The notes under the pieces were generated by a model, which was given only the letters and a program-made list of their open reading frames with translations, was not told the origin of the DNA and did no database searches. This document shows positions 14,909 through 53,805 of a DNA stretch of 64,000 nt, in pieces (position 1 is the first letter of the stretch; the number at the start of each line of letters is the position of its first letter). Source of the DNA: a virus (Duplodnaviria; Heunggongvirae; Uroviricota; Caudoviricetes); IMG/VR virus record IMGVR_UViG_3300031963_006119; one strand, given 5' to 3'. The position numbers and the translations under genes are program-made.

Positions 14909-14987
14909 GAGTTAAGCATAGGAGAAAGTCTTTATTAAACTTAAAATTAGATGCATTAACAAACATAACTTGCATCTGGAGCGAAAA

Positions 14988-15659
14988 ATGAAAAAAAGAA
15001 TCACAGGCGGTGGTAAGTTGTCGAGAAAAGTACTTACAATTCTAATGATGGCTGGAATGCTGTCATCGGGGGCGTGGGCCAACGATGTTTATGTTGATCA
15101 GATCGGTGATAATACATCTGTATCTATTACACAAACAGGAGCAGGCAACACAGTAAACGGTAATGTTGGTGGCAACGGCAACGTTGATGATGCTGCTATA
15201 ATTCGTGGCGATCTCAATAATGTAACTATAAGTCAAATTGGTGCTAGCAATACACTTAGTATGATTGTTAACAATGAATCTAATGGAACAGGATCTACCA
15301 TAGTAGTTTCAGCAGATGGTAGCAACAACAATCAAACTATCGGTTGTGGTACTGCATTAAGTTCAAGTTGTAATGCTAGTATTATTAGATCTGAAATTAC
15401 AGGTAATAGCAACAATACTATACAGACGTTAAGTGGTGGCGTTGTGCAGAGTAAAATTAATATTAATGGCGATTACAACAATGTAACACATACAGCATCA
15501 GGTGTAGGTTTACATAATGGAGAAATAACAGTTTCAGGCAGTGGCACTAATCAACTTGCCAATGCAGTGACACTAACACAGAGTGGAGTATTCGCTAAAA
15601 ATGCAGTTATTACCAGCAACGGTTCTAATAATAACGTTATTGTTACTCAGTCCGATTAA
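14988..15659 (+). CDS. secreted curlin-repeat (CsgA/CsgB-like) protein
   Basis: Signal peptide. Repeated Q-x-G-x-x-N-x-(x)5-x-Q units (DQIGDNTSVSITQTGAGNTVNG, ISQIGASNTLSM, TLTQSGVFAKNAVITSNGSNNNVIVTQ) resembling curlin repeats. Asn/Ser/Thr/Gly-rich. Confidence 0.55.
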   Translation: MKKRITGGGKLSRKVLTILMMAGMLSSGAWANDVYVDQIGDNTSVSITQTGAGNTVNGNVGGNGNVDDAAIIRGDLNNVTISQIGASNTLSMIVNNESNGTGSTIVVSADGSNNNQTIGCGTALSSSCNASIIRSEITGNSNNTIQTLSGGVVQSKININGDYNNVTHTASGVGLHNGEITVSGSGTNQLANAVTLTQSGVFAKNAVITSNGSNNNVIVTQSD

Positions 15660-16704
15660 TAGCTTTGCCGGTGTTGGTAAAGTTACTGAACAGACTGGGC
15701 CTACAGAAATTGTAAGGAATAAGAAAAGTATTCCTTCTAGTCTAAACACGGGTGTGGAGATGAATGACACCATCTCCACAGCTAAAGCCAAAGCTGAATT
15801 AACCTTTGAAGATAAAACTACAGTTAAACTTACAGAACACAGTAAAATGATCATAGATGATTTTGTCTATGATCCAAAAAAAGGTTCTGGTAAATTAGCC
15901 ATCAATATGGCCTTAGGCACAGCTCGTTATGCAAGCGGACAAATAGCAAAAAATAATCCGCAACAGGTTGCTATCAAAACACCTACCGCTACTATTGCTG
16001 TGCGAGGCACTGATTTTTCTATGACAGTAGATGAATTAGGACGCAGTCTTGTAGTACTACTTCCTAGTTGTTCTCCAAACGGAGGCTGTGTTACTGGTGC
16101 TATCGAAGTTAGAAATCTAGCAGGTGTTGTGATATTAGATGTACCATATCAAGCTACATTAGTTAACAGTGCTTACACAGTACCTACAGAACCTACAATT
16201 GTAAAATTAGACCAAGCAAACATTAACAACATGTTGATCATTAGCAAACCTAAAGAAGTTGCAGATACAGAACAGGCTGGCCTAGCTAAGAAAGAAAAAT
16301 CTATTTTAGATTTTAACGAACTAGATATCGATTTGTTAAAGTTTAGTGCATTAGATGAAAATTCTTTAGATAAAAAAAATGAGTTAGATAGAAATGATTT
16401 AAATGCAGACCTATTAGCATTTAATGAATTAAATGAACTTGATAGACAAAATGCTAGTTTGTTGAGCAATGAATTAGACAATCCAATATTACCAGGATAC
16501 TCAGCAAACAAACCATTAGGCTTGTTGTATTATTTTAATGATGATCAAACTAAGGTTACATTATACAAGGCAGGTACACACAATACCACAGCAACATTTG
16601 ATACAACAAAGAACATTACATTTACCTTAATTCAAGATGGGCAGACTATTATTCAAAACGTGAATAAAGGTAGTACCAGCACTCTTATTGTAACACAAAA
16701 TTAA
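15583..16704 (+). CDS. secreted FecR-domain protein (start uncertain, overlaps upstream gene by about 55-77 nt in another frame)
   Basis: Signal peptide LLPATVLIITLLLLSPINSFA. FecR-like beta region (..TTVKLTEHSKMIIDDFVY...GTARY...VAIKTPTATIAVRGTDFSM). C-terminal Asp/Leu/Asn repeat region. Confidence 0.5.
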   Translation: MEYSLKMQLLPATVLIITLLLLSPINSFAGVGKVTEQTGPTEIVRNKKSIPSSLNTGVEMNDTISTAKAKAELTFEDKTTVKLTEHSKMIIDDFVYDPKKGSGKLAINMALGTARYASGQIAKNNPQQVAIKTPTATIAVRGTDFSMTVDELGRSLVVLLPSCSPNGGCVTGAIEVRNLAGVVILDVPYQATLVNSAYTVPTEPTIVKLDQANINNMLIISKPKEVADTEQAGLAKKEKSILDFNELDIDLLKFSALDENSLDKKNELDRNDLNADLLAFNELNELDRQNASLLSNELDNPILPGYSANKPLGLLYYFNDDQTKVTLYKAGTHNTTATFDTTKNITFTLIQDGQTIIQNVNKGSTSTLIVTQN

Positions 16705-16719
16705 CTAGTAGGTTTAGAA

Positions 16720-16750
16720 ATAAAAAACCCGCCAGGCGGGTTTTTTATGG
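16720..16750 (+). terminator. rho-independent terminator
   Basis: AAAAACCCGCC-AGG-CGGGTTTTTT. Confidence 0.7.
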
Positions 16751-16762
16751 TAAATACTTCAT

Positions 16763-17317
16763 ATGAAAATACTTGAAATAATCCAAGAAGCAGAAGCTAG
16801 CGACGATGAATTGCGTCAGCGGTACGGTGACTTTGATCCAGAAGATAAGCCAATGTTGCCTACTACTAAAGTTGGTGGAGCGCCGGCACCGACGCTATGG
16901 ACTGCATACGAAGCTATTCAAGATATATTAGGTAGAAGTCGAGTAACAGACGACGATGATGACTTAGAGCCCGGCATGTATTATGTCTACCCCAGTAACG
17001 AAACACCAATGTTTAAAGATACCGAAGAATCTGGCCCTGGCGGCAGTATTAATATTCCAAATTTAGAAAGCAAGGCTGCTCGTGATGTTGCGATTGCAGC
17101 TCACGAAGCATGTCATGCTTATGTACACGATCGTACAAAAGGTAGCGGGCGTGTTTATGCTAATGAAAAGATTATTAATAATCTAGCAGAGAAGTGGTTA
17201 CGTAAACATCTAAGCGGCACAGCATTACACGTTGCACTAGAAACTATCACAGGCAGTCGTATTAGTTATGGTAAGGATTACATGCCTAAAGGTCCAACAT
17301 CGGACAAAAGAAAATGA
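16763..17317 (+). CDS. hypothetical protein
   Basis: ORF after terminator; HEACHAY motif could be a metalloprotease-like HExxH, unverified. Confidence 0.45.
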   Translation: MKILEIIQEAEASDDELRQRYGDFDPEDKPMLPTTKVGGAPAPTLWTAYEAIQDILGRSRVTDDDDDLEPGMYYVYPSNETPMFKDTEESGPGGSINIPNLESKAARDVAIAAHEACHAYVHDRTKGSGRVYANEKIINNLAEKWLRKHLSGTALHVALETITGSRISYGKDYMPKGPTSDKRK

Positions 17318-17778
17318 AAATAAATGAACTAATGGCGGCAACTTCAGTGCCGTGGAAATGGACTTATCGCAGTGAGCGTCAGGCCACTGCTGAATTTACT
17401 GTGGGCAATGTGCTGTATGAATTCAAAGCAAAGAATTCAGAATACGATCATGTAGATGCAGACCGTGATGTAGTAGGCTACGATGATGAAGAAGAAAATG
17501 AAGAAGTTGACTACCGTGGTTACTGGGAAATTAGTTTTAACGGTGACGGCAAAACTAGCATGACCGGAACTGGTAACTCCGCACAAGTTATATCAGCTAT
17601 CACTGCTATAATAAAAGATTTCTTAATAACATACGACGATAAGATTCAAGTGATAGAATATGATGTACAAGGGTCTAGCGGTAGGGCAGGAGTATATGGT
17701 CGTATTTTTAATAAGCTGTTGCCAAATTGGACACAAGAAGATGGCTCACTACACGATGTGGAGGTAAAAAGACCATGA
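17314..17778 (+). CDS. hypothetical acidic protein
   Basis: ATGA overlap with previous gene. Confidence 0.45.
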   Translation: MKINELMAATSVPWKWTYRSERQATAEFTVGNVLYEFKAKNSEYDHVDADRDVVGYDDEEENEEVDYRGYWEISFNGDGKTSMTGTGNSAQVISAITAIIKDFLITYDDKIQVIEYDVQGSSGRAGVYGRIFNKLLPNWTQEDGSLHDVEVKRP

Positions 17779-18068
17779 GAAAAATATTATTAATTTTATT
17801 AGTTTGTTTGTCTAGCACAGTCAATGCACAATTTAGATATGATTATCCCTTGTTGTGTGACAGTACTGAAAAGATCATAAAAAGCCTTGGGGAAAATTAT
17901 AAAGAAATATTAACCTGGGGCGGAAAGCATTCTAGTGATAATAGTGCCTACAGTTTATGGATCAATGAAAAAGAAGGATCTTGGACATTACTTAAAATGA
18001 CTCCTGAAACTAGTTGCATACTAGGAGTAGGCACAGAATCTAAAATTAAACTAGGTACGTCAATATAA
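17775..18068 (+). CDS. small secreted protein
   Basis: Signal peptide MRKILLILLVCLSSTVNA; internal Met start overlapping upstream stop. Confidence 0.45.
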   Translation: MRKILLILLVCLSSTVNAQFRYDYPLLCDSTEKIIKSLGENYKEILTWGGKHSSDNSAYSLWINEKEGSWTLLKMTPETSCILGVGTESKIKLGTSI

Positions 18069-20113
18069 TGATTAAAAAAATACTTTTAAGTCCATGGACT
18101 GCTCTATTAACTCTAGCGTTAGTAGTAGGCATACGAATAGCAGATCCTACATTCGTTGAAAGTGTAAGACTACGCTACTTTGATACATTAATTACTTCTA
18201 AAGCACCTACAGAAAATAACATCTATACAGTTAACATAGACGAAGCTGCTTTAGACAAATACGGCCAATGGCCATTACCCAGGGCAGAATATGCTAAAAT
18301 TATTAAAGATTTGTATGATCGTGGTGCTGGCCTTGTCGTTCTCAATGTGCTTATGGCTGAGCCTGATCGCACTGGTGGCGACTCAACTCTTGCCTCAGCT
18401 CTTAAACAATATCCTGTAGTACTAGGATCAGTGCCTGCTGATAAAACTAAAAATATACCACGCAACCCAGGCAGTGCTGTACTAGGGCCAGAGTGGTTAG
18501 ATCAAATTGTACAATACCCGGGCCTTATTGCTAACGTACCGCAGTTAGAAAATTCAGCAGCAGGAATTGGTATTGTATCAACTATGCCTGAAGTTGACGG
18601 AGTGAATCGTCGATTACCTCTTATCGTTGCAGTTGGCGATAAACTTTATCCTAGCATAGCTATGGAAACACTGCGAGTAGCAGCTGGCGATTCAACCTTT
18701 CAAATCAAACTTTTTGAAGGCGGTGTTGAAAAAATGCGTATACCTAAGTTTGGTCCTGTTACTACAGATAACTTAGGTCGGGTATGGATTGATTGGAGTC
18801 AACAAAGTAAAAATGTTAGTTTACTTGAGTTGCCTAAAAACCTAGATGGTGCTATTGTTATTGTTGGTCCAACCGCAGCTGGTATCAGTAATCCTGTACC
18901 AACCAGTATGGGTGCTGTATTCCCACATGCTGTGCAGGCTAGTGTTATTGCTACAATGATTAACGGTATAGTTATACAGAGACCAGATTATGCCAACGGT
19001 GTAGAAATCTTAACACTAGTATTAGCAGGTATACTATTATTATTCTTAACAAGGTGGACTTATGTTGGTATTATTTCAGGTGTTGTTATTATTGGGACTA
19101 GTGTATTCGCTGGCTCCTATGCTTATGCACAGTTTAGTTGGCTCTTCGATTCAACTGGTATTGTGGTCGGGCTTGTTCTGGTTATGCTTCATGCTTATGG
19201 CATTAAGTTTATAAGCGAGTTCTTACAGAAACAAGCAATCAAGAAACAATTTGCAGGCTATGCTAGCCCTACAGTAGTTAGACTGTTACAAGAAAATCCA
19301 GACTTAATTAAGAAGGGTGTTAAGAAAGAAGTCAGTATACTGTTCTCAGACTTACGCGGCTTTACACCCTTAGGTGAAAGTTTTGGAGATGACGTTGCAG
19401 GTCTTACAAAAATAATGAACGGCTACATGGATGCCATTACACAACCTGTACTAGATGCAGACGGTATGATTATTAAGTACATTGGTGATGCTAGTATGCA
19501 TATACATAATGCACCTATTGAAGATTTGAACCATCCTGCTACAGCAGTACGCACAGGATTGAAGATGCTTAAAGCAGTGGAGAAATTTAATGAAGAAATC
19601 ATTATACCTCAAGGAAGACCTGCCGTTGGCATGGGTGCTGGTATTAATACAGGGTTGGGATATATTGGAGAGATGGGATCAACTGCAAGACACAGCTACG
19701 ATGTACTAGGTGATGCTGTTAGTACTGCTGCCCGTATTGAAAGTAAATGTAAAGAGTATGGATGCTTGTTGCTAGTTGGCGGCGCAACAGTTGATCGCTG
19801 TGGAGATGACTTCTTCTTCCTTAAGATTGATGATCTTGCTGTAAAAGGTAAGAGTGTAGGAATTGCTATCTATACAGTATTAGATGATATCACTGATACG
19901 TATCATGTTGCTAAAAAAATACACGAATCAATGCACGGTGCATACAGAGGACAAAAGTTTAGTACGGCTATTAGCATGTGTAAACAACTAAAAGGTCAGT
20001 TTGACGGCAAAATGGACAAGTATTACGACATGTGGATAGAGCGTTGTGAGTTCCAGCAGACTCAAACTCTACCTAAAGATTGGAACGGCGTTTTTATAGC
20101 GACAAGTAAATAA
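18068..20113 (+). CDS. membrane CHASE2-sensor class III adenylate/guanylate cyclase
   Basis: N-terminal TM, periplasmic CHASE2-like region, 3-4 TM helices. Cyclase catalytic core ILFSDLRGFTPLGE...YIGDASM...GINTGLGYIGEMGS. Confidence 0.7.
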   Translation: MIKKILLSPWTALLTLALVVGIRIADPTFVESVRLRYFDTLITSKAPTENNIYTVNIDEAALDKYGQWPLPRAEYAKIIKDLYDRGAGLVVLNVLMAEPDRTGGDSTLASALKQYPVVLGSVPADKTKNIPRNPGSAVLGPEWLDQIVQYPGLIANVPQLENSAAGIGIVSTMPEVDGVNRRLPLIVAVGDKLYPSIAMETLRVAAGDSTFQIKLFEGGVEKMRIPKFGPVTTDNLGRVWIDWSQQSKNVSLLELPKNLDGAIVIVGPTAAGISNPVPTSMGAVFPHAVQASVIATMINGIVIQRPDYANGVEILTLVLAGILLLFLTRWTYVGIISGVVIIGTSVFAGSYAYAQFSWLFDSTGIVVGLVLVMLHAYGIKFISEFLQKQAIKKQFAGYASPTVVRLLQENPDLIKKGVKKEVSILFSDLRGFTPLGESFGDDVAGLTKIMNGYMDAITQPVLDADGMIIKYIGDASMHIHNAPIEDLNHPATAVRTGLKMLKAVEKFNEEIIIPQGRPAVGMGAGINTGLGYIGEMGSTARHSYDVLGDAVSTAARIESKCKEYGCLLLVGGATVDRCGDDFFFLKIDDLAVKGKSVGIAIYTVLDDITDTYHVAKKIHESMHGAYRGQKFSTAISMCKQLKGQFDGKMDKYYDMWIERCEFQQTQTLPKDWNGVFIATSK

Positions 20114-23626: not shown

Positions 23627-24169
23627 ATGATTGAATACGAATATTACGACTGGAATAATCTCATTGGTCCAAACCAACGAGAAAAATATGTCACCAACAT
23701 CCGACGGTTGGTAGCTGACGGACAATATTGGACAAATAGTCCTCGATATCAAACAAATGTAAATATTTTTGGATTACCTGGAGAAGAATGGACTAATCTA
23801 AAAATGAGTTTTATTTGGAGTTGTTTTGCTTATCTAAAAAGAGACGTTCCAATTAAAACAATTAAAAGCTGGGGGTATATGACATCACTGTCCTACACCG
23901 TAGAAGATAGAAATACTTATTGGCATCAGCATCTTAGACAAGATTCTAAAGTTATAAGCGGAGTATACTATCTTCAATTACCATCAGGTGTTGATATGTC
24001 AACTGCTGGAACCGAGTTCGCTCCGCAAGGGCCAGAAAACCCTGGACATCACTTCGCTGAAGCTCGAATAGGGCATTGGATCATTTGGCCCGGAAAAACT
24101 TGGCATCGTCCAGGAATTCTGCAGAGTCAAGAAGATCGCTTTATTGTTGCGGCTGATTTAGAGTTTTAA
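23627..24169 (+). CDS. 2OG-Fe(II) oxygenase superfamily protein (paralog of 7583-8161)
   Basis: Shares WHQHL...SGVYYLQLP...IWPGKTWHRP pattern with the 7583 ORF. Confidence 0.45.
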   Translation: MIEYEYYDWNNLIGPNQREKYVTNIRRLVADGQYWTNSPRYQTNVNIFGLPGEEWTNLKMSFIWSCFAYLKRDVPIKTIKSWGYMTSLSYTVEDRNTYWHQHLRQDSKVISGVYYLQLPSGVDMSTAGTEFAPQGPENPGHHFAEARIGHWIIWPGKTWHRPGILQSQEDRFIVAADLEF

Positions 24170-24184
24170 TATAAGTACTTAATC

Positions 24185-24406
24185 ATGGAGAAAAAAATGG
24201 AAGAAAAAGAAGCTAAACGCTGGGTATTTAAAGCAGAGGATATTTTTGAGGACATTCCCACAGATCCTGAGAACTGTCTAATGAAAATTCCTGAAGAAGT
24301 ATCTAATGCTATAGGGCTAGCACCTGGCGATCGAGTAAAAGTTTTATGGGGTGATCAGGGCACTATTATTATAGAAAAGGCAAAAGAAACAGATGCCAAA
24401 GAATGA
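24185..24406 (+). CDS. hypothetical small acidic protein
   Basis: RBS GGAGAAAAAAATG; 73 aa. Confidence 0.4.
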   Translation: MEKKMEEKEAKRWVFKAEDIFEDIPTDPENCLMKIPEEVSNAIGLAPGDRVKVLWGDQGTIIIEKAKETDAKE

Positions 24407-24614
24407 CGATCTACTAGAAGTTGAGGGCGAAATAGTAGAGGTTTTACCAAATCAAACATTTAACGTACTATTAGATGTGAACAAAAGCATGATTGTCTGC
24501 TACACCAGCGGACGTATGCGTCAAAACAAAATCCGATTAGTAGCAGGAGATCGTGTAAAAGTAGAAATGAGCTCATACGATCTATCCAAAGGACGTATTT
24601 CATTCCGTATATAA
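24393..24614 (+). CDS. infA: translation initiation factor IF-1 homolog
   Basis: LEVEGEIVEVLPNQTFNVLLDVNKSMIVCYTSGRMRQNKIRLVAGDRVKVEMSSYDLSKGRISFR aligns along its length with bacterial IF-1 (S1-like OB fold; ..G.V.E.LPN..F.V.L.NG......SGKMR.N.IR...GD.V.VE...YDLSKGRI.FR). Confidence 0.8.
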   Translation: MPKNDDLLEVEGEIVEVLPNQTFNVLLDVNKSMIVCYTSGRMRQNKIRLVAGDRVKVEMSSYDLSKGRISFRI

Positions 24615-38447: not shown

Positions 38448-38689
38448 TGACAGTTAAAAAAACATACGCAGATACTGTTGATCTGCACTGCACGGATAAA
38501 AATGAAATAGTGCCAGCTGAAATCCTAGAATTTCGCCCAGGCATGCTTATTAGTGTAAGTATACAAAGAAAAATTAAAATGATACTTAAATTTAATCATC
38601 GAGGCAATAACTATGTTGGCTCGATGGCAGGTCTTGAGTTTACTACTGCTGGCCCAAAAGAAACTATTACTTACGAAGGAAGAAGATAA
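38447..38689 (+). CDS. hypothetical small protein
   Basis: 80 aa. Confidence 0.35.
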
Positions 38690-39306
38690 TGCCACTAATC
38701 CCAATGGTTGTTGAACAAGAGACTCGCGGCGAGCGTTCATATGATATTTACAGCCGCTTGCTCAAAGATCGAATTGTTATGCTCAACGGCCCTGTAGAAG
38801 ATAATATGGCTAATGTAATTGTAGCACAGTTATTATTTTTAGAAGCAGAGAATCCAGACAAAGACATTAACCTATATATTAATTCGCCTGGCGGTGCAGT
38901 TACCGCAGGACTAGCTATCTACGACACAATGCAGTACATCAAATGTGATATTCGTACTATTGTCATGGGTCAGGCATGTTCAATGGGCTCGTTCCTAGCA
39001 CAAGCAGGCACGGCAGGTAAGCGAGTAGTACTGCCTGAAAGCCGTACTATGATACATCGAGTTAGTTCAGGTACTCCTGGAACACGTGGTTCAGTTCATG
39101 TACAAGAACTTCAATTTGAAGATGCTATTCGTTCAATGGAAGAAAGTAAAAAACTCAACAAGCGATTAACCGAGCTGTATGTCAAACACAACACCAAAGG
39201 CAAACAATACGATGAGCTTTTTGAAACAATGAAATTTGATACTTTCTTAAATGCACAAGAAGCGGTTGATTACGGTTTAGCAGATAAAGTTGTAGAGAAA
39301 CGATAA
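38689..39306 (+). CDS. clpP: ATP-dependent Clp protease proteolytic subunit ClpP
   Basis: [54 protein letters not shown], catalytic Ser in GQACSMGS, His in MIHRV; near-collinear with bacterial ClpP. Confidence 0.85.
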
Positions 39307-40034: not shown

Positions 40035-40063
40035 TTGACACAGAACTTTTTCGGTGTTATACT
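40035..40063 (+). promoter_or_regulatory. sigma70-like promoter TTGACA-17-TATACT ahead of first tRNA
   Basis: TTGACA 40035-40040, TATACT 40058-40063. Confidence 0.5.
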
Positions 40064-40421: not shown

Positions 40422-40680
40422 CCAAGTTTTTTAGTAAGTTGTTTAAGGTTACCTAGTCCGCTAGGGGTGAACGAAAAGGTGATTGCGTAGCAGAAATGCT
40501 CGGCCTTGATACCCATGAAGCAGGAGGGTTCTAGAGTATGACGAGACACCATCGAGTCAAAGGGCAAGAACTATTCCAAACTCCAGGAAGGCGGCGGAAC
40601 TACTAGGCCTGTAATGAGGTCTTGACGCAAGTTGGTGATGCGTGTCAAGAACTTCCTCAAACAATTTATTAAAGATTTTG

Positions 40681-40754: not shown

Positions 40755-40809
40755 CATATTAGTTGACTTTGATTGTAAAGAGTGTACAATTAAAATATAG
40801 AAAGTTTTT

Positions 40810-40880
40810 GCCCTTATAGTTAAATGGTATAACGACGGTTTTGTAATCCGTAGTTTGCAGTTCGATTCTGTGTAGGGGCA
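40810..40880 (+). tRNA. tRNA-Thr (TGT)
   Basis: Acceptor GCCCTTA/TAGGGGC, anticodon loop TTTGTAA, CCA. Confidence 0.7.
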
Positions 40881-40897
40881 CCAAAGTGTTAGTTTTT

Positions 40898-40978
40898 GCC
40901 CCGGTGGTGTAATGGTAGCCACGCTGGTCTTAGAAGCCAGTGCCGCAAGGCGTGTCGGTTCGAGTCCGACCTGGGGCA
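40898..40978 (+). tRNA. tRNA-Leu (TAG), long variable arm
   Basis: Acceptor GCCCCGG/CTGGGGC, anticodon loop CTTAGAA, variable arm TGCCGCAAGGCGTGT, CCA. Confidence 0.75.
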
Positions 40979-40991
40979 CCAATGTTAGTAA

Positions 40992-41062
40992 GCGGGATTA
41001 GTTTAATGGTAAAACAGCAGATTTCCAATCTTCGGTCATCAGTTCGATTCTGATATCCCGCT
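40992..41062 (+). tRNA. tRNA-Gly (TCC)
   Basis: Acceptor GCGGGAT/ATCCCGC, anticodon loop TTTCCAA, CCA. Confidence 0.7.
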
Positions 41063-41081
41063 CCAATTTTAAAAGGTAGAT

Positions 41082-41306
41082 ATGAAAGCAAAAACTTTAA
41101 GTCGTGGTCCAACTATTGATACTAATAAATGTGTTGAAAATGTTGGTGGTAGATTTGATCTAGTATTAATTGCTTCAGTTAGAGCTAGAGAAATAGCAAG
41201 GAAACACAGGAACGACGAAATGTCTACCCAAGTTAATGCGCCAGTTTCTGCACTGCTTGAAATTCAAGAAGGCAAAATTGGTAGAGAGTATCTAAGAAAA
41301 GTATAA
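41082..41306 (+). CDS. rpoZ: DNA-directed RNA polymerase omega subunit homolog
   Basis: RBS AAAAGG. VENVGGRFDLVLIASVRAREIARK matches the RpoZ signature (GNRFDLVLVAARRARQ). 74 aa. Embedded between tRNA genes. Confidence 0.6.
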   Translation: MKAKTLSRGPTIDTNKCVENVGGRFDLVLIASVRAREIARKHRNDEMSTQVNAPVSALLEIQEGKIGREYLRKV

Positions 41307-41327
41307 TCGGAGTGTGGCGCAGTCTGG

Positions 41328-41402
41328 CTAGCGCACCTGGTTTGGGACCAGGGGGTCCAAGGTTCGAATCCTTGTACTCCGACCATTTTTTGGGCTGTTA
41401 GT
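41328..41402 (+). tRNA. tRNA-Pro (TGG)
   Basis: C1-G72 start CGGAGTG as in bacterial tRNA-Pro, anticodon loop TTTGGGA, CCA. Confidence 0.75.
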
Positions 41403-41411
41403 GATAATGGG

Positions 41412-41483
41412 AGCACGGGGCCTTTGCAAGGCTTAGGTCGGGGTTCGATCCCCCGACGGTCCACCAAATATGCGGGTATGATG
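41412..41483 (+). tRNA. tRNA-Ala (TGC)
   Basis: Acceptor with G3:U70 wobble (Ala identity), anticodon loop TTTGCAA, T-arm CGGGGTTCGATCCCCCG, CCA. Confidence 0.7.
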
Positions 41484-41491
41484 TAATGGTA

Positions 41492-41562
41492 ACCTGAAAC
41501 CTTGCCAAGGTTTATTCGCGAGTTCGATTCTCGCTACCCGCTCCAAATGTTTTAGAAATATT
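41492..41562 (+). tRNA. tRNA-Gly (GCC)
   Basis: Acceptor GCGGGTA/TACCCGC, anticodon loop TTGCCAA, CCA. Confidence 0.75.
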
Positions 41563-41594
41563 TTTAAAAAGATGTTGACAAGACAGTAAAAATT

Positions 41595-41623
41595 TGCTAA
41601 AATAGACACATGTTAAGAATTTA
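41595..41623 (+). promoter_or_regulatory. consensus sigma70 promoter TTGACA-17-TAAAAT driving ORF-free region
   Basis: TTGACA 41595-41600, TAAAAT 41618-41623. Confidence 0.5.
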
Positions 41624-41629
41624 AGGGTG

Positions 41630-42830
41630 GTTTATCATCCTGTAGGCGGCTTGCCGTTTACAAAGAATAAGTGTGGCGACACACCCAAAGCTAGAATGCC
41701 TACATACTAGCGCCAGCAATGGTTCACGTAAACAAGCCTGCTCACTACCGCGAGGTAGCGTTCACTCATAAGACCGGTGGATGTAACAGCAAAGCTGATG
41801 TATGGGAAAGAACATTGTTCGACGTGCCGCAAGGAACACGGGGCAGTGAAAAGTAACAGGTGGTGCTGACTTCCATATAAAACCAATCAGTTAGTTGGTA
41901 TGAGAAAGGGTAGTGTACTTGTTCGAGGGGTCGCACCTAAGAGCTCGTATACAATGTAAATGGTTAGTGGGCTGTAGTAATACAGTACACCGATCGTGAA
42001 ACATCACTGAGTAGCTCGCGAGGCAAAAGGTATGTGGTGAGTTGTATTTTGTATTCCAAAAGAGTATGAAGCAACTGAGGCAGCTCATCGCGGTAGGTTA
42101 ATGTAGATCAATGGTAGATCATCTTCCTGTTAAGAAGAATGCTGTCGGTTCAAATCCGATCATTTAAACAAAAATGCAAAGACTGCCTCGGTCGTATGTG
42201 AAAAGTATCTAATACTTGAGTGGTAACACAATCAAGTCTAATGAAGCTCGCAAGGTAACATTAGTTTATACTGGAAGTTTCGTAGGGTGTTAGCGCACTC
42301 GAATAGCTCGCAAGGTTAACGGAATAGATGGTGTAGAATAGCATATGGCGTCAAGTCTACTGCCTGACTTAAAACGGCGATACTGTAAGCAGACTAGGTT
42401 ACATAGTGATATGGACTTAGTGGATGTCTAGAGAACGTATACTCGCAAGGTGTACGGTAATGCTAGAGGTGCTTATGGTTAAGATGTAATCTCAGTCTTA
42501 ACACTATTCTAAAACACATTACCACAAACAGCAATTAGAGCTGGTTGTATAACAATGTCGTAGTGTGTTTCAGAATAGCAGAAATGTTATGCACATGACA
42601 ATTCGTTGTCAGCAAGAGAATGTCACGCTATAAAGGTTTCTTCGAAGGACTGATATAGTAGAAGGGGACGGGTTCAACTCCCGGCTGATCGGAAGATCGG
42701 CGCAGATTGGTTGCTAACTGGACTAGTATCCCAAGTGACGTACCGAGTCCCGCTCGAGCTTGTTAATTCGGGTGAATGGTGCTTATAACGATGGAAGTAC
42801 TAATGAGTTGTCAGCTGTATAATATTTTGA
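41630..42830 (+). ncRNA. promoter-driven ORF-free structured region (candidate large ncRNA) with repeated CTCGCAAGG motifs, degenerate tRNA-like segment and tmRNA-like T-arm
   Basis: No + strand ORF in 1.2 kb of a gene-dense genome. Motif [A/G]CTCGC[A/G]AGG at 42013, 42245, 42305, 42441. tRNA-like 42097-42167. GGGGACGGGTTCAACTCCCGGCTGATCGG at 42664-42692. Confidence 0.35.
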
Positions 42831-43656: not shown

Positions 43657-44165
43657 GGAAAACCCGGGCTCCCTTGCCCGTTATACACAGGGGGTGGGGC
43701 AGTCACCATAAAGAGTGCTAGGCGTGTAGTGCATTGGCCTTCCGATCCCGTGTAGGGAATCCGGGGACGCATTAGGTGAGGTTTAGCACCTTTCCAAAAG
43801 AATAAATGTTATGGACAGAGTAACCGCTCAGTCTAGGGCTCATGTGGTGTGAGTAGCTAGACACTTTATAAATGCTCTTTGAAGTTTAACTACACTTGAG
43901 AACACCAGTAGGTACTAAGTCGACTAACTGCTGAACGTGCAAGGAAGATACGGAGTTAAACAGTTTGGTTCGATTCCAACAGAGAGCACCTATAAGGTTT
44001 TGGTAGTATGCTGGTAACAGTAAACTACCCGGAAGAAGGCGAGAGATGAGGATGAACACCGTTATCGCTTCATGCGATGACTCCAATACTGGCAATCAGT
44101 CTTGAAAACTGATCGTGTTTGTATGCCCCGAATCTATCGAACTTGTGATTTGCTGTTCGGAAATA
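43645..44165 (+). ncRNA. rnpB: RNase P RNA-like (rnpB-like) element
   Basis: GC-rich, ORF-free island. GGAAAACCCGGGCTCCC (43657), CCAACAGAGAGCACC (43976), GCTGGTAACAGTAAACTACCCGGAAGAAGGC (44010) and GCCCCGAATCTATCGAAC (44125), in the same order as M1 RNA motifs AGGAAAGUCCGGGCUCC / CAACAGAGAGCA / GCUGGUAACAG..GGUAAACUCCACCCGGAGCAAGG / ACAGAACCCGGCUUAUCGG. Confidence 0.5.
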
Positions 44166-44302
44166 CGCAAGCCACTGTGCTTTGCATATTGTAATTTGCT
44201 TAGGGCCTAGAGTAACCTCAGCCCGTTTGCACCTTGCACAGTTCATTACTTACTTGCTAACTTTCGTTTTTTTATAAGTAATCTTACAAAGGAGACAAAC
44301 TT

Positions 44303-44977
44303 ATGTATGCAACAGGTGTTTTTCGTTCTGCATCGCAGATTAATAGTGCAATGGGCCGTGTTTACGGACATATGGCACTGGCAGTTATCACATCAATGAT
44401 TGTAAGTTATCTTGTAGGATCAAATACAACGCTGATGGAATTTTTCTTTACAGGCGCAATGAAATGGCTTGTAATCTTTGCGCCGCTTGTAGCCATTCTT
44501 GGCGTTAGCTTTGCAATGGACAAAATGAGTAAGAGTGCGTTACAGCTATTTTTACATGGATTTGCCGCATTAATGGGTCTAAGTTTTGCTACAATCTTTG
44601 TAGTATATAACATGGGAAGCATTGTAAGCGCATTCATGGGAGCTGCCGTTCTATTTGCTACAATGAGTGGCTATGGCTACTTCACTAAACGTAATTTGGA
44701 CGGAGTTGGCCAATTTATGTTCATTGGGTTGATTGCGATTGTTATTGCAAGTATAATCAATATTTTTATTGGTAGTACAGTTTTTCAAATGGTCATTAGT
44801 GCTATCGGAATTATTGTGTTCTTAGGCTTAACAGCATACGACACACAAAAGATTCGTGAGATGGTTAGTTACGACAATGATGGTAAGGCAGAAATTGCAG
44901 GCGCTCTTAGCTTGTACTTAGACTTTATCAACTTGTTCTTAATGTTACTACAACTATTTGGTGGTCGTAAGGACTAA
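44303..44977 (+). CDS. Bax inhibitor-1/YccA family membrane protein
   Basis: RBS AAAGGAGA; 7 predicted TM helices; 224 aa; BI-1/YccA-like N-terminal cytoplasmic segment and terminal basic motif (GGRKD). Confidence 0.6.
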   Translation: MYATGVFRSASQINSAMGRVYGHMALAVITSMIVSYLVGSNTTLMEFFFTGAMKWLVIFAPLVAILGVSFAMDKMSKSALQLFLHGFAALMGLSFATIFVVYNMGSIVSAFMGAAVLFATMSGYGYFTKRNLDGVGQFMFIGLIAIVIASIINIFIGSTVFQMVISAIGIIVFLGLTAYDTQKIREMVSYDNDGKAEIAGALSLYLDFINLFLMLLQLFGGRKD

Positions 44978-44984
44978 AGAATTT

Positions 44985-45056
44985 GCCTGGTTAGCTCAGG
45001 GGTAGAGCAACGCCTTTACACGGCGAAGGTCCGCGGTTCGAAACCGTGACCAGGTA
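44985..45056 (+). tRNA. tRNA-Val (TAC)
   Basis: GCCTGGTTAGCTCAGGGGTAGAGC..., anticodon loop TTTACAC, T-arm CGCGGTTCGAAACCGTG, CCA. Confidence 0.7.
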
Positions 45057-46304: not shown

Positions 46305-46496
46305 ATGCCAACGATTAGATATCTTGATACTAGTATGTACGGATCGTATTTTGTCGACTGCGAAATATTAGAAAAAATAGACGAAGACACATTTAAGATT
46401 AAATTCTATGATGACAATATAGATGAATATGAAATAAAGGTAGTTGAGCGTGATCGTCTTGAGTTTCCTAAGTTTAGTGATTACGCATCTTATTAA
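46305..46496 (+). CDS. hypothetical small protein
   Basis: RBS AAAGGAGAAA then ATG; 63 aa; sits inside tRNA island. Confidence 0.45.
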   Translation: MPTIRYLDTSMYGSYFVDCEILEKIDEDTFKIKFYDDNIDEYEIKVVERDRLEFPKFSDYASY

Positions 46497-46670
46497 GGAG
46501 AAAACAAAATGGGGCGATCGTAGTTTTACTTATGATAGTAGCTTTAATTTACTTTATTGACAAAAATTTAAAATAGGAGAATGACATGAAACGTTCAAGT
46601 AAACGTTAGTGTCAACCTTGACCCCGTATTGGTCCTGGTTGGCACATTAAATCAATTTAATTACGACCAA

Positions 46671-48711: not shown

Positions 48712-49109
48712 TAAAAGAACTATTCGAAGGCCTTGATGAAAAAACAAAAACCTGCGGAATGTGCTTATTGAATCTTCCTTTAGGAATGTTTGGTACAGAT
48801 GGTGGTGCAAAGTATCTTAGATATGAATGTAAACCATGTGCAAAGAAACAATCTGCTTTATTGAAGAAGATAAAATCGACTGCACCTATTAGACCTAAAG
48901 ATTATACATGCCCTATTTGTAACAGAAACGAAGAAGAAGCAAAGGGACACAATCCTAATAAAAAAGGAGTTTGGTGTGCAGACCACGATCATGCTACTGG
49001 AAAATTTAGAGGTTGGCTTTGTCATAAATGTAATTTAGGGTTAGGTAATATGAATGATGATATTAGTAGACTAGAATCTGCTATAAAATACTTAAAGGAG
49101 CGAGTATAA
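48708..49109 (+). CDS. recombination endonuclease VII-like Holliday junction resolvase
   Basis: CxxC...CxxC zinc cluster and [23 protein letters not shown] block characteristic of T4 gp49/Endo VII family. Confidence 0.6.
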
Positions 49110-49576
49110 TGCCTTGGATTGAAAATGTAGCAGCCGCTGATATTCCAACAGGATTCCATCACGACGCCGGCGCTAACAGTATGCTGATCAGTATTGTGGA
49201 TCCTGCCAGCTGGCGTCCTGAAGCTAAACACCAATTCAAAGAGCGTCATAACTTTGAATTTTTAGATGTAGAAGAAAAAGACGAAGTGTTAGAGGAAGCA
49301 ATGAAGTGTAGTCACGAGCAGGCCGCAGAGCTTGTTCGACTGCTACAACACGCATTAGAGAACCGTATGAATGTTGTTGTGCATTGTTATGCAGGCGTAT
49401 GTCGTAGTGGTGCTGTGTGCGAAGTCGGAGTCATGATGGGCTTCAATGACACAGAACGTTTCCGTAGTCCAAACTTGCTAGTCAAGCATCGTATGATGAA
49501 GGCTTTGGGTTGGACATATGATGCTGACGAAAAACCAAACATTGATGATTGGCGTACATTTAGGAGTATTGATTAA
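49109..49576 (+). CDS. dual-specificity/protein-tyrosine phosphatase-like protein
   Basis: CX5R P-loop VHCYAGVCRSGAV. Confidence 0.6.
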   Translation: MPWIENVAAADIPTGFHHDAGANSMLISIVDPASWRPEAKHQFKERHNFEFLDVEEKDEVLEEAMKCSHEQAAELVRLLQHALENRMNVVVHCYAGVCRSGAVCEVGVMMGFNDTERFRSPNLLVKHRMMKALGWTYDADEKPNIDDWRTFRSID

Positions 49577-50001: not shown

Positions 50002-50517
50002 ATGTCTGTGTGTTATCAACTAGTTGGAGTTCCTGGTGCAGGTAAATCTACTTGGCTAGACAATCAAGACTGGATCAAAGGATTTGTTTCATTTGGTCAA
50101 ACTGGAATTAATTACTGGACTCCAAAAAGTGACTACGTAATAGTTTCTACAGATTACTTTGTAGAACGATTTGCTCGTCGAATGGGTTCAACCTATTCGG
50201 AAGTTTTTGATAAGGTAATGCCTAGAGCTATTCGTTTAATGATGCGTCGAGTTCGAAAAGCGCAGTCTGAAGGTCGCCGCATTATTTGGGATCAAACATC
50301 TACAACTTTGGCAAGTCGTAAACGTAAGTTTAATGCCTTGCCAGACTATGAGCATGTTGCTGTAGTGTTTAAGACTCCGGACTGGACAGAATTAGAACGT
50401 AGACTAAGCAATCGTCCTAACAAGATCGTTCCATTAGAAGTTGTTAAAAGTATGATTGATAACTTTGAAATGCCGACTGAAGCAGAAGGATTTAAAGAAA
50501 TCTGGTACGCTGATTAA
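50002..50517 (+). CDS. P-loop kinase-like protein (polynucleotide kinase / zeta-toxin-like)
   Basis: Walker A GVPGAGKST at N-terminus, 171 aa. Confidence 0.5.
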   Translation: MSVCYQLVGVPGAGKSTWLDNQDWIKGFVSFGQTGINYWTPKSDYVIVSTDYFVERFARRMGSTYSEVFDKVMPRAIRLMMRRVRKAQSEGRRIIWDQTSTTLASRKRKFNALPDYEHVAVVFKTPDWTELERRLSNRPNKIVPLEVVKSMIDNFEMPTEAEGFKEIWYAD

Positions 50518-50558
50518 CTGTGGCTTTTTTTTACAACATGCCCTGTCAGTCTATTTGG

Positions 50559-50587
50559 TTGACAGGGCTTTGTCTTGACTATATAAT
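50559..50587 (+). promoter_or_regulatory. sigma70-like promoter TTGACA-17-TATAAT overlapping an inverted repeat
   Basis: CCCTGTCA...TGACAGGG hairpin; TTGACA 50559-50564, TATAAT 50582-50587. Confidence 0.5.
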
Positions 50588-50618
50588 ATATGCATTACTA
50601 AAGATAAGAGAGAAAAAA

Positions 50619-51176
50619 ATGACAACTTGGTTGACTAGTGACCTGCATTTTGGACACGCAAACATTATGAACTTTTGTTCACAAGCAAGAGCAAGATTTC
50701 ATAATGATGTAACGTACATGAACGAAAAAATGATAGAAGAATGGAATGAAACTATTGCTCAAGATGACACCGTTTACATTCTAGGAGATGTTGCATTTCT
50801 TCCAGCTGACAAAGCTGTAAAGATTTTGCAACGATTGAATGGCAGAAAAATTTTGATTGAAGGAAATCACGATCGTAAACTGTTAAATGATCCAGTGTTT
50901 CGTAGATGTTTTGTAGAAATACATCCGTATTTGTGCATTAACTACGAAAAGACTCGTGTAGTAATGTTTCACTATCCTATTGCAGAATGGGATCAAATGC
51001 ATAGAGGTGCTGTTCACTTTCATGGTCACTTACACGGTGGCAAGAGTGGATTAGAAGAATATCGTGCAAGAGACATGGGTATGGATGCAACAGGAATGAT
51101 TGCGGTTACTATGGAGCGAGCCATTGCTGATGCAATGACTGGCAAGGTTAAAGGACACCACACCACTGTTATGTAA
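50619..51176 (+). CDS. calcineurin-like metallophosphoesterase
   Basis: RBS AGAGAGAAAAAAATG; SDLHFGH, GDVAF, GNHD, HYP, HGHLH motifs. Confidence 0.65.
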   Translation: MTTWLTSDLHFGHANIMNFCSQARARFHNDVTYMNEKMIEEWNETIAQDDTVYILGDVAFLPADKAVKILQRLNGRKILIEGNHDRKLLNDPVFRRCFVEIHPYLCINYEKTRVVMFHYPIAEWDQMHRGAVHFHGHLHGGKSGLEEYRARDMGMDATGMIAVTMERAIADAMTGKVKGHHTTVM

Positions 51177-51179
51177 GGA

Positions 51180-51689
51180 GTGATTATGACAATCGTAGAA
51201 AGAGCTAGGGTATTTGCAACAGCGGCACATTCAGCTGTAGCTCAACTTCGTAAGTACACAGGTGAACCATACATCGTTCACCCTGCTGAAGTTGTTCGCA
51301 TTGTTAGTACAGTGACTCACACTGACGCAATGTTAGCGGCGGCTTGGTTACATGATGTTGTAGAAGACACTGGTGTTACTAACGAAGTGATCCGTGCTGA
51401 ATTCGGAGACGAAGTTGCAGAGTTAGTGGGATGGTTAACTGATGTTAGTCGTCCTGAACAAGGCAATCGAGCTGTGCGCAAGGCTATTGACAGGGCACAC
51501 TCTGCTATGGCACCGGCAGCGGCGCAAACAGTAAAGTTAGCTGACTTAATCTCTAACACTCGTAGTATTATGGCACACGATGAAAAGTTTGCTAGAACAT
51601 ACTTAGAAGAAAAGAGATTGTTGTTAGAAGTAATGACTAAGGGCGATCCTGTGTTATTAGCTGAAGCTAGAAAGAATATCAGCAAATGA
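51180..51689 (+). CDS. HD-domain phosphohydrolase
   Basis: H...HD motif (AAHSA...AAWLHDVVED), 169 aa. Confidence 0.55.
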   Translation: MIMTIVERARVFATAAHSAVAQLRKYTGEPYIVHPAEVVRIVSTVTHTDAMLAAAWLHDVVEDTGVTNEVIRAEFGDEVAELVGWLTDVSRPEQGNRAVRKAIDRAHSAMAPAAAQTVKLADLISNTRSIMAHDEKFARTYLEEKRLLLEVMTKGDPVLLAEARKNISK

Positions 51690-52488: not shown

Positions 52489-53805
52489 ATGCGTACACAA
52501 CCCGAATACATTATTGGTGCTTTAGAAGATCACCCTAGCCGTCTTAATAAAGAAGGTATCCTCGAGTCGGCTATGGAAGAAGGACTAGACGAGTTCTTTG
52601 AAGGTGTACGTATGGCCTTGGATCCTCTTGTAACATTTGGCGTTAAGCAAGTACCAGAAGCTACTGTAGACGGGCAAGGACTTACTTGGGCTAATTTTAA
52701 AACACTTGCAGATCAACTTAATCGTAGAGAACTAACCGGTCATGCGGCACGTGATGCTATTAAACTATGCATGGACACAGCTACAGCATCACAGTGGAAT
52801 CGATTCTATCGACGCATCCTTATTAAGGATTTGCGTTGCGGTGTTTCGGAAAAGACTGTAAACAAGGTTGCTAAAAAATTCCCGCAGTACACAATTCCAA
52901 TCTTTGAATGTCAGCTTGCGCATGACTCAGCTAATCACGAAAAGAAGATGACTGGCAAGAAACAGATTGAAGTTAAACTAGACGGTGTTCGAGTCATTGC
53001 TGTAGTTCGTGTTGACGGCAGAGTCGAACTGTTTAGCCGCAATGGTAAAGAGTTTCATAACTTTGGACACATCGCAGACGAAATTTCTAAAGTAGTAAAA
53101 TTTAATCCGCCAGCTTATGACCTAGTGCTAGACGGCGAAGTAATGAGCGCCAGCTTTCAGGACCTAATGAAGCAGGTTCACCGTAAGGACAATGTTGCCG
53201 CAAGCGATGCAGTACTGCATCTGTTTGACATGTGTCCATTAGAGGATTTCCAAAAAGGTGTATGGGAAAAGCCACAGAGTGTCCGCAGTCAAATGGTTCA
53301 GGCTTGGGTTTCAAAACATGTGGCTTTTCTGCCACACGTCCAATGCTTAGACTGGGAAACTGTGGACTTAGACACCCCCGACGGACAAAAACGCTTTGTA
53401 GACCTGAATAAACGTGCTGTAGACGGTGGTTATGAGGGTGTTATGATCAAGGATGTTGATGCACCCTACGAGTGCAAGCGGAGCCACAGTTGGCTCAAAG
53501 CTAAACCATTTATAGAAGTAACATTAAGTATTACAGCCGTAGAAGAAGGAACCGGAAAAAATGAAGGAAGACTTGGGGCTTTTGTATGCAGTGGCGCGGA
53601 TGATGGGCGTGATATTAGGGTCAATGTTGGCAGTGGCTTTACGGATGATCAAAGATCCAGTTTTTGGACTAGTCGTAATGATCTTCTTAGTGCTTTGGTG
53701 GAAGTCCGTGCAGACGCCGTAACACAAAATCAAGACGGTACATATAGCCTTCGCTTTCCTAGGTTCAAAACTTTTAGAGGATTTGAAAAGGATGAAAAGT
53801 TATGA
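52489..53805 (+). CDS. ATP-dependent DNA ligase
   Basis: Adenylation motif I EVKLDGVR, 438 aa, OB-fold C-terminal region. Confidence 0.7.
   Translation: MRTQPEYIIGALEDHPSRLNKEGILESAMEEGLDEFFEGVRMALDPLVTFGVKQVPEATVDGQGLTWANFKTLADQLNRRELTGHAARDAIKLCMDTATASQWNRFYRRILIKDLRCGVSEKTVNKVAKKFPQYTIPIFECQLAHDSANHEKKMTGKKQIEVKLDGVRVIAVVRVDGRVELFSRNGKEFHNFGHIADEISKVVKFNPPAYDLVLDGEVMSASFQDLMKQVHRKDNVAASDAVLHLFDMCPLEDFQKGVWEKPQSVRSQMVQAWVSKHVAFLPHVQCLDWETVDLDTPDGQKRFVDLNKRAVDGGYEGVMIKDVDAPYECKRSHSWLKAKPFIEVTLSITAVEEGTGKNEGRLGAFVCSGADDGRDIRVNVGSGFTDDQRSSFWTSRNDLLSALVEVRADAVTQNQDGTYSLRFPRFKTFRGFEKDEKL

Follow-up and report, generated by a model that had tools for sequence, protein, structure and literature searches.

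An RpoZ-like omega homologue encoded within a phage tRNA array

What might a bacteriophage gain from a gene for omega, the smallest of the subunits of bacterial RNA polymerase (RNAP), and what does it mean that such a gene lies between two tRNA genes? This question is raised by a 74-codon open reading frame (ORF) at positions 41082-41306 of IMG/VR virus record IMGVR_UViG_3300031963_006119 (Caudoviricetes), of which the whole analysed stretch of 64,000 nucleotides (nt) is hereafter called the window. Phages redirect host RNAP through sigma and anti-sigma factors, by modifying it covalently or with small proteins that bind it, and an own version of an RNAP core subunit would be a different phage strategy. 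Here, we present an analysis of the identity, genomic setting and possible role of this ORF, including profile and structure comparisons, surveys of related phage loci and cellular omegas, and scans of the surrounding region. In sequence and predicted fold, the ORF is confirmed as a genuine RpoZ/omega homologue. On balance, we favour the reading that it encodes a phage-adapted omega, which would be expressed early from a tRNA precursor and would take the omega position on the host RNAP, where it would probably change the response to guanosine tetraphosphate (ppGpp).

Identity of the ORF and the phage omega family

An initial annotation, made from the sequence alone, had described a homologue of omega of 74 amino acids (aa) between tRNA-Gly and tRNA-Pro, and both the position and the assignment hold. 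The protein (MKAKTLSRGPTIDTNKCVENVGGRFDLVLIASVRAREIARKHRNDEMSTQVNAPVSALLEIQEGKIGREYLRKV) scores above the curated thresholds of two profiles, namely PF01192 (RNA_pol_Rpb6), with 41.6 bits against a gathering cut-off of 26 (E 1.3e-10) and residues 16-66 aligned to profile positions 1-51 of 53, and the NCBIfam rpoZ equivalog TIGR00690, with 32.4 bits against a cut-off of 23.6 over positions 4-59 of 60. When all PDB chains were searched with phmmer, each of the 22 matches was a bacterial omega, aligned over residues 14-71, and the Vibrio cholerae, Francisella tularensis and Escherichia coli proteins ranked highest. The annotation had proposed that a likeness confined to the short FDLVL stretch, or no profile match, would speak against an omega. 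The similarity extends beyond that stretch, since 51 of the 53 profile positions are covered and a second block and the N-terminal helix also align to solved omegas. The first block, (G)NRFxLVxxAxxRAR, lies within the motif GGRFDLVLIASVRAR at residues 22-36 (G23, R24, F25, D26, L27, V28, L29, I30, A31, R34, A35 and R36), and the second, ALxEIxxG, is kept as A57, L58, E60, I61 and G64 in the alignment to solved omegas.

The fold prediction points the same way. An AlphaFold2 model built on 49 homologues (mean predicted local distance difference test score, pLDDT, of 86; predicted template modelling score, pTM, of 0.72) places helices at residues 14-21, 24-44, 53-62 and 69-73, and this order of a short helix, a long helix and two shorter ones is that of the omega fold and superposes on solved omegas. 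The superposition, a check likewise suggested in the initial annotation, retrieved only omegas: each of the 50 Foldseek matches listed from the PDB was either an omega chain of RNAP or a model of RpoZ, with the F. tularensis omega 6wmt_E ranking first (template modelling scores 0.66/0.70, root-mean-square deviation 2.5 A, 65 columns). Owing to the small size of the protein, the Foldseek E-values are weak, at 0.03 or higher. As judged from the profile and motif comparisons, the resemblance to omega is far beyond chance.

The window protein belongs to a large family. An index of 5.8 billion proteins contained 223 omega clusters (90% identity) at E<=1e-3, of which the top 120 share 61-96% identity and are nearly all 72-79 aa long; longer cluster members result from over-calling, with the ORF extended across the tRNA that precedes it. 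An exhaustive phmmer search of 1.84 billion representatives gave 214 clusters (50% identity) at E<=1e-3 and 36 at E<=1e-10, and IMG/VR holds at least 168 confirmed omega loci. The surveys below refer to 80 IMG/VR omega loci with 44-77% identity, on contigs of up to 364 kb. The codon-level ratio of nonsynonymous to synonymous substitution rates (dN/dS) has a median of 0.20 over 317 pairs, and the protein is therefore under purifying selection; against its nearest relatives the window omega has a dN/dS of 0.11-0.17, with dS near saturation. The identical protein was found on contigs from 56 blocks of a public assembly collection, the longest contig, ENA ERZ27247957 k141_990718, being 316,657 bp; it follows that the phage is widespread and that it is probably very large.

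By sequence comparison, the phage omega family is coherent and set apart from the cellular omegas sampled. Cellular omegas were collected from 185,579 GTDB species genomes with the pattern G[NS]RFDLVL[IV]A, which is biased towards Gammaproteobacteria; in this pattern-limited scan the best matches to the window omega had 36-49% identity and were all gammaproteobacterial. Among 80 cellular omegas, the best match to the window omega reaches 47.8 bits (43% identity), and each of 59 other phage omegas scores at least 57 bits against it; across the whole family 89% of the phage-phage comparisons outscore the best phage-cell score. A few members, with the N-terminus MARITSE..., are near cellular sequences (up to 70 bits). 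Ahead of RFDLV there are 15 residues in E. coli omega, 21-26 in most phage members and 23 in the window protein, and the phage extension has the core (L)SRGPxIDTEKC, with S7, R8 and C17 invariant among close relatives. An extension of the form SR-x3-5-[IVLM]-[DN] was present in 92 of 149 short phage representatives and in none of the 80 cellular omegas, 79 of which start with MAR. The C-terminus is uniformly short in the phage proteins, with ...GREYLKKV a few residues before the stop and no acidic tail.

Isolated phages gave no counterpart. In a tblastn search of 50,697 phage records, no true phage record with an omega homologue was found, PHROGs has no family for the window omega, and no description of a phage-encoded bacterial-type omega was found in the full-text literature searched, in agreement with the remark in the initial annotation that such genes are rarely reported. 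The only two tblastn matches, both labelled 'Acinetobacter phage MD-2021a', were rejected as phage omegas, as they are bacterial chromosome with gmk-rpoZ-spoT and pilus genes. One of these mislabelled bacterial contigs (L220; CAKLQH020000003.1, 145694-155909) carries ispH, gmk-rpoZ-spoT and type IV pilus genes and is a source of false 'phage rpoZ' reports. Large neighbour proteins on the 354-kb and 364-kb omega contigs had no or weak matches to isolated phages.

The tRNA array and expression of omega

The window contains 28 tRNA genes spanning 40.1-47.5 kb, and omega has the features of a tRNA-embedded gene, lying on the strand of its neighbours with gaps of 16 and 1 nt and with AAGG in the upstream spacer, which reads CCA-ATTTTAAAAGGTAGAT-ATG (Table 1). 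The spacers around omega leave no space for a promoter. The nearest upstream promoter candidate lies between tRNA-Asp and tRNA-Thr, and the scan showed no terminator-like site either within the inferred transcription unit or from the two upstream promoter candidates to omega; the next promoter-like site past the unit is at 41575. Within the ORF itself, a candidate at 41278-41307 (TTGGTA-18-TATAAT) was rejected as a chance match, because transcription would begin inside tRNA-Pro. Further upstream, the 255-nt gap between tRNA-Glu and tRNA-Asp has an imperfect inverted repeat; it contains no ORF, has no Rfam match and has no homologue among the omega loci.

The placement within the array had been called odd in the initial annotation. 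The location is real and the oddity is not, as the setting is conserved: in all 80 related loci omega lies inside a tRNA array or at its margin and shares the tRNA strand, and other ORFs are packed as tightly. Spacing was analysed for 54 distinct omega proteins. A same-strand tRNA ends at most 40 nt before the omega start in 38 of 51 distinct relatives (median 21 nt), and 29 of 50 have a tRNA that starts at most 10 nt after the stop (median 7.5 nt). The flanking pairs vary by lineage, including Met/Arg, Met/Pro, Met/Gly, Gly/Pro, Asn/Thr, Gly/Trp, Arg/His, Ala/Gly and others, and the plan of the short spacer is constant: encoded CCA, a U-rich stretch, AAGG, 5-9 nt and ATG. As a control, all ORFs filling an inter-tRNA gap with at most 40 nt on each side were collected from the same loci, giving 98 ORFs or 72 distinct proteins, of which 24 are omega and 48 are not. 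This count weighs against any special meaning of the position, and the idea that omega is uniquely tied to tRNAs was rejected because the 48 belong to other families. Since tight flanking is common to unrelated ORFs, the position tells more of array organisation than of omega. Tight interleaving of small ORFs and tRNAs is the normal architecture here, with omega a regular and not a unique tenant.

Several other tenants recur in these arrays. In the omega loci of IMG/VR, tRNA-sandwiched ORFs with gaps of 0-27 nt include a family of 59-77 aa (MKPGPNYRMSS...KRAMIDAELCAA), one of 49-50 aa (MPMYETTVRTPQGE...GPRAVPYIPK) and a 2OG-oxygenase-like family of 181-191 aa that is related to an ORF of the window outside the array. 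The window array itself holds a Bax1-I/YccA-like membrane protein gene that ends close to tRNA-Val. Mosaic arrays of tRNAs and ORFs thus appear typical of this phage group. Additionally, the omega stop of some lineages is overlapped (TAATG) by another small ORF, which begins MSKGSRPRPxSV..F.NNYDAIFGK and is absent from the window. Taken as a whole, the arrays are mosaics of tRNAs, large structured RNAs and packed small ORFs, an arrangement which implies that mRNAs are excised by tRNA processing.

The wider region carries the marks of host transcription. The window is densely coded, mostly on the plus strand, with 36-44% G+C, and the nearest isolated relatives are Methylophilales phage Melnitz (Kyanoviridae), the closest isolate, and Pelagibacter phage HTVC008M. 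The relationship to Melnitz is distant; the 681-aa cyclase-domain protein of the window has 53% identity to Melnitz, and a module of CsgF/CsgG curli-like, FecR-domain and adenylate/guanylate cyclase-domain genes is syntenic with Melnitz at 42-53% aa identity. A megablast search of the region against deposited phages gave only short tRNA matches and no close DNA match. Sites of the form TTGACA-N16-18-TANNNT occur 19 times in the window, compared with 4.06 +/- 1.87 expected (none of 100 shuffles reached 19), and 18 of the 19 are on the plus, coding strand, while the T4-type late motif TATAAATA, for which 5.8 occurrences would be expected, is present once. Together, the excess of sigma-70 sites and the deficit of the late motif are the signature of an unmodified host sigma-70 RNAP reading the region. 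Melnitz encodes a T4-type late-transcription coactivator (gp33-like). Among approximately 80 ORFs of the window that were scanned against Pfam or PHROGs, no homologue of RNAP beta, beta' or sigma was detected.

Possible roles on the host RNA polymerase

Cellular omega is a chaperone of beta' and part of ppGpp site 1 (PMC5811629), favours primary sigma loading and the transcription of highly expressed genes (PMC3985657) and stabilises elongating RNAP (PMC13192885). With this in mind, the favoured course of events is as follows. Host sigma-70 RNAP would, with fair confidence, transcribe omega early within a tRNA precursor. Since only a few nt separate the gene from same-strand tRNAs, tRNA processing would define the ends of its mRNA: RNase P would cut the 5' end of tRNA-Pro and thereby create the 3' end of the message, and tRNA-Gly 3' processing, by RNase E-type cleavage in the A/U-rich spacer, would create the other, both steps likewise with fair confidence. 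The product would be an mRNA of approximately 240 nt, with a 16-nt leader containing the Shine-Dalgarno sequence and a 1-nt trailer. Again with fair confidence, phage omega would bind beta' of the host at the omega position, where it would add to host omega or take its place. Phage transcription would likely benefit in kind through the known omega functions, on account of which the phage copy would keep the captured RNAP working efficiently at the strong sigma-70 promoters of the phage. The last and most speculative step is that the remodelled N-terminus may well alter the ppGpp response of the captured enzyme.

This last step draws on the chemistry of ppGpp site 1. The E. coli omega touches the 5'-diphosphate of ppGpp through Ala2 and Arg3, and the standard RNAP lacking site 1 carries rpoZ delta2-5 along with three substitutions in rpoC (PMC13192712). 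Pro10-Thr11 of the window omega align to Ala2-Arg3, with 8 extra residues in front, and the free Ala2-Arg3 N-terminus that characterises the proteobacterial ppGpp site 1 is thus missing. The initial annotation had suggested a role in RNAP assembly or stability, possibly linked to ppGpp control; such roles are what we also infer, and the remodelled N-terminus fits the ppGpp idea without proving it.

Several points weigh against the favoured reading, in whole or in part. Phage omega would have to displace host omega already present in assembled RNAP. The invariant Ser7-Arg8 just upstream of the aligned positions could still reach ppGpp, and the first 10 residues of the AlphaFold2 model have low confidence (pLDDT 57). 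Additionally, 5 of 174 family sequences keep a cellular-type MAR[IL]T start, and because of this minority the loss of the Ala2/Arg3 contacts cannot be the universal function of the family. The search pattern restricted the cellular comparison set to Gammaproteobacteria, and the window covers 64 kb of a genome of maybe more than 300 kb, so that a phage RNAP encoded elsewhere is possible.

Among the alternatives, a plain supply of dosage would be the simplest, with a phage omega equal to that of the host topping up the pool after host shut-off, keeping beta' folded and RNAP intact and leaving regulation unchanged. All core omega motifs and the fold are kept, other host-machinery 'spare parts' are aboard (IF-1, ClpP, ClpS and 28 tRNAs), and Melnitz encodes ribosomal protein S21 beside a tRNA. 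However, the family is at most approximately 50% identical to the sampled cellular omegas and has acquired a conserved phage-specific N-terminal motif and a uniformly short C-terminus, a combination that argues for adaptation over a simple copy, and omega is non-essential and stable in E. coli (PMC5811629); we therefore regard simple supply as rather unlikely. About equally unlikely, in our view, is the bolder version of the ppGpp idea, a stringent-response countermeasure in which an omega without the Ala2/Arg3 contacts would disable or retune ppGpp site 1 on the captured RNAP. If this were true, the strong sigma-70 promoters of the phage, including those of tRNA arrays, GOLLD and early genes, would remain fully active in hosts that are starved and rich in ppGpp, as is typical of oligotrophic waters, the SpoT-like alarmone hydrolase encoded 10 kb away would work together with omega, and the phage would be the first virus to replace a core subunit of host RNA polymerase.

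In a further alternative, which we regard as improbable, phage omega would be an adaptor or decoy, sitting in the omega site or on free beta' with its N-terminal segment docking a phage regulator, or else blocking a host factor or defence that reads omega. Omega can indeed serve as an activator contact, since the gene transfer agent (GTA) regulator GafA binds it directly (PMC9638019), and the SRGPxID extension is absent from the sampled cellular omegas; the genes that most commonly co-occur with omega are nevertheless of RNA-end-processing type (Cys-phosphatase, metallophosphoesterase-like and P-loop kinase) and not transcription factors. Still less probable, and very much so, is an omega that serves as a subunit of a phage-encoded multisubunit RNAP instead of the host enzyme. 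The exact protein does occur on contigs of jumbo-phage size, the largest having 316,657 bp, and some jumbo phages encode beta/beta'-like RNAPs, but the known jumbo-phage RNAPs are without alpha and omega (PMC7598289), the window omega is bacterial-type and, among solved structures, nearest to gammaproteobacterial omegas, no beta/beta' homologue was detected among the scanned window ORFs, and the region is rich in consensus host sigma-70 promoters. Finally, an ORF of only 74 aa in a region dominated by RNA genes might seem to have arisen by chance or to be a host-derived fragment in decay, and both are ruled out by the conservation data: in addition to exceeding the curated profile thresholds, the protein has hundreds of intact homologues with a dN/dS of about 0.2, and the Shine-Dalgarno sequence and start codon are conserved.

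A possible link of phage omega to alarmones is also touched by a gene located 9.9 kb downstream in the window, which encodes a 169-aa protein consisting solely of a RelA/SpoT-type hydrolase domain. In the PDB this protein matches hydrolase domains of Rel proteins, Mesh1 and small alarmone hydrolases, with a best E of 1.7e-17. Such a gene lies downstream of omega in 9 of the 80 loci, and within reach of it in 6 of the 47 loci with at least 7 kb of downstream sequence. The neighbourhood is suggestive, as rpoZ and spoT are operon partners in bacteria, for example in the gmk-rpoZ-spoT contig mentioned above; alternatively, phage alarmone hydrolases may counter tRNA-targeting toxSAS toxins. Because of the 6 of 47 loci and these other documented uses, the gene was not used as support for a ppGpp model.

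Neighbouring features and comparison with known systems

The array of the window includes several structured or conserved RNAs in addition to the tRNAs (Table 1). A full-length GOLLD RNA with an embedded tRNA-Asn lies directly 3' of a promoter-like site, and nhmmer showed it to be conserved end to end over approximately 910 nt (roughly 41612-42520) in 6 omega loci and in 2 more partially. A non-coding element further downstream is conserved in approximately 50 distinct omega loci (nhmmer E to 1e-55), and in close relatives it lies 95-200 nt upstream of omega, in the order element, tRNA-Met, omega. RNAalifold, applied to 29 sequences, gave 22 pairs, of which 11 have compensatory double changes, and a hairpin with an invariant UGUGGUG loop. 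The 3' part is tRNA-like in appearance, but a transfer-messenger RNA (tmRNA) or tRNA identity was rejected, as nothing was returned by default ARAGORN, Rfam at E<=10 or comparison with the Melnitz tmRNA; the element is a candidate new structured RNA. Three further non-coding segments of the array show nucleotide conservation across many omega loci, with at least 17-19 matches each.

Just 3' of the tRNA array is a set of RNA-end-repair-like genes. It includes a Cys (DSP/PTP-type) phosphatase that occurs in 56 of the 80 omega loci and, with a median identity of 74%, exceeds omega itself in conservation, a P-loop kinase of the AAA_33 type (19 of 80), a 218-aa protein that resembles Aquifex aq_1665 (PDB 1xm7) and is probably a phosphoesterase (57 of 80), and an ATP-dependent ligase. 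The window also encodes translation initiation factor IF-1, present in 22 of the 80 loci as well, and homologues of the ClpP protease and, elsewhere, of the ClpS adaptor (E 8e-27), which together suggest that the phage encodes a Clp module. Cyanophage-style auxiliary genes were represented, in a pooled Pfam scan of the whole window, by heme oxygenase, ferredoxin-dependent bilin reductase, Hsp20, AhpC/TSA, PP-loop ATPase, PTPS (QueD-like), radical SAM and Band_7.

Table 1. Features of the omega locus, the window and related loci. Positions refer to the window unless a locus label (L) is given.
Feature	Position	Strand	Basis or remark
RpoZ-like omega CDS	41082-41306	+	ATG, 74 codons, TAA stop; ORF list, profiles, fold, dN/dS
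tRNA-Gly(tcc), encoded CCA	40992-41065	+	ARAGORN; Rfam tRNA 64.3 bits; 5' flank of omega
16-nt A/U-rich spacer, tRNA-Gly CCA to omega ATG	41066-41081	+	sequence
Shine-Dalgarno-like AAGG	41073-41076	+	5 nt before omega ATG
tRNA-Pro(tgg)	41308-41385	+	ARAGORN; Rfam tRNA 61.8 bits; begins 1 nt past omega stop
Sigma-70-like promoter candidate TTGACT-16-TACAAT	40763-40790	+	10/12 consensus matches, consensus only
Sigma-70-like promoter candidate TTGACA-17-TATACT	40035-40063	+	11/12 matches; head of tRNA array; belongs to the 19 TTGACA-N16-18-TANNNT sites
Inferred transcription unit tRNA-Thr, -Leu, -Gly, omega, tRNA-Pro, -Ala, -Gly	40810-41545	+	tRNA list, promoter/terminator scan
Gap between tRNA-Glu and tRNA-Asp	40425-40679	+	inverted repeat near 40630-40650
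Promoter-like site TTGACA-17-TAAAAT	41575-41603		directly 5' of GOLLD
GOLLD RNA, full-length	41575-42520	+	Rfam RF02032 at 42034-42498, 201 bits
tRNA-Asn	42097-42169		embedded in GOLLD RNA
Conserved non-coding element	43661-44010	+	core 43736-43881; tRNA-like 3' part 43874-43993
Other conserved non-coding segments	44029-44271; 42606-42804; 46487-46670	+	nucleotide conservation
Bax1-I/YccA-like membrane protein	44303-44977	+	182 bits; stop 7 nt before tRNA-Val at 44985
RNA-end-repair-like gene set	49109-49576; 50002-50517; 50520-51176; 52489-53805	+	
RelA/SpoT-type hydrolase domain protein	51180-51689	+	Pfam HD_4 65 bits
Curli-like, FecR-domain and cyclase module	13215-20113	+	Melnitz synteny
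2OG-oxygenase-like relative of sandwiched family	23627-24169		
Translation initiation factor IF-1	24393-24614	+	Pfam eIF-1a 71.6 bits; PDB IF-1 E 1e-18
ClpP protease homologue	38689-39306	+	220 bits
tRNA-sandwiched ORFs, examples	L163 8643-8822; L181 2581-2733; L162 644-1219		IMG/VR omega loci
Omega-overlapping small ORFs	L038 6194-6364; L043 6192-6458; L051 6195-6434		start MSKGSRPRPxSV

Both the omega protein family and phages carrying parts of the host machinery were already known. As far as the literature searched goes, a phage-borne copy of a host RNAP core subunit that forms a family both large and distinctive seems not to have been described. Omega is the least understood core subunit, and the more than 200 phage variants, whose distinctive N-termini fall at the ppGpp site, represent a panel for studying sigma loading, processivity and alarmone sensing.

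Compared with cellular RpoZ of V. cholerae, F. tularensis and E. coli, the window protein has the same Pfam and TIGR family, helical fold and NRFDLVLxAxxRAR and ALxEIxxG motifs, and its size is near that of short omegas such as the 72-aa Francisella protein. In contrast, the cellular gene lies in a gmk-rpoZ-spoT neighbourhood and the window gene between tRNA-Gly and tRNA-Pro, and the free Ala2-Arg3 end of the E. coli protein is replaced by an 8-residue extension with an invariant Ser-Arg. As a small, host-derived machinery part in a large aquatic phage, omega resembles the S21 gene of Melnitz, which is located 13 nt after a tRNA, and likewise IF-1, ClpP and ClpS; these serve translation or proteolysis, whereas omega is an RNAP core subunit.

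In phage T4, host RNAP is appropriated by AsiA, MotA, gp55, gp33 and Alt/Mod, which bind sigma, the beta flap or beta', or modify alpha. The window phage would likewise depend on host RNAP and have it reprogrammed by a small phage protein, but the T4 factors are phage inventions and the window phage supplies a homologue of a core subunit itself. Protein genes within tRNA operons are known from the E. coli thrU-tyrU-glyT-thrT-tufB operon and from the tRNA punctuation of mitochondrial genomes. These share with phage omega the tRNA strand and spacings of a few nt to flanking tRNAs, processing being presumed for the phage gene, and the tufB operon is looser than the 1-nt gap between the omega stop and tRNA-Pro.

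Two further systems link viruses or virus-derived elements with cellular-type RNAP. The RNAPs of jumbo phages phiKZ and AR9 are similarly encoded by large phages and related to cellular RNAPs; they consist of split beta/beta' without omega (PMC7598289), whereas the window has omega and, among its scanned ORFs, no beta or beta'. A parallel in the use of the subunit is GafA of the gene transfer agent RcGTA, a virus-derived element that uses omega as a handle on RNAP (PMC9638019); there the omega is that of the host, and here it is encoded by the virus.

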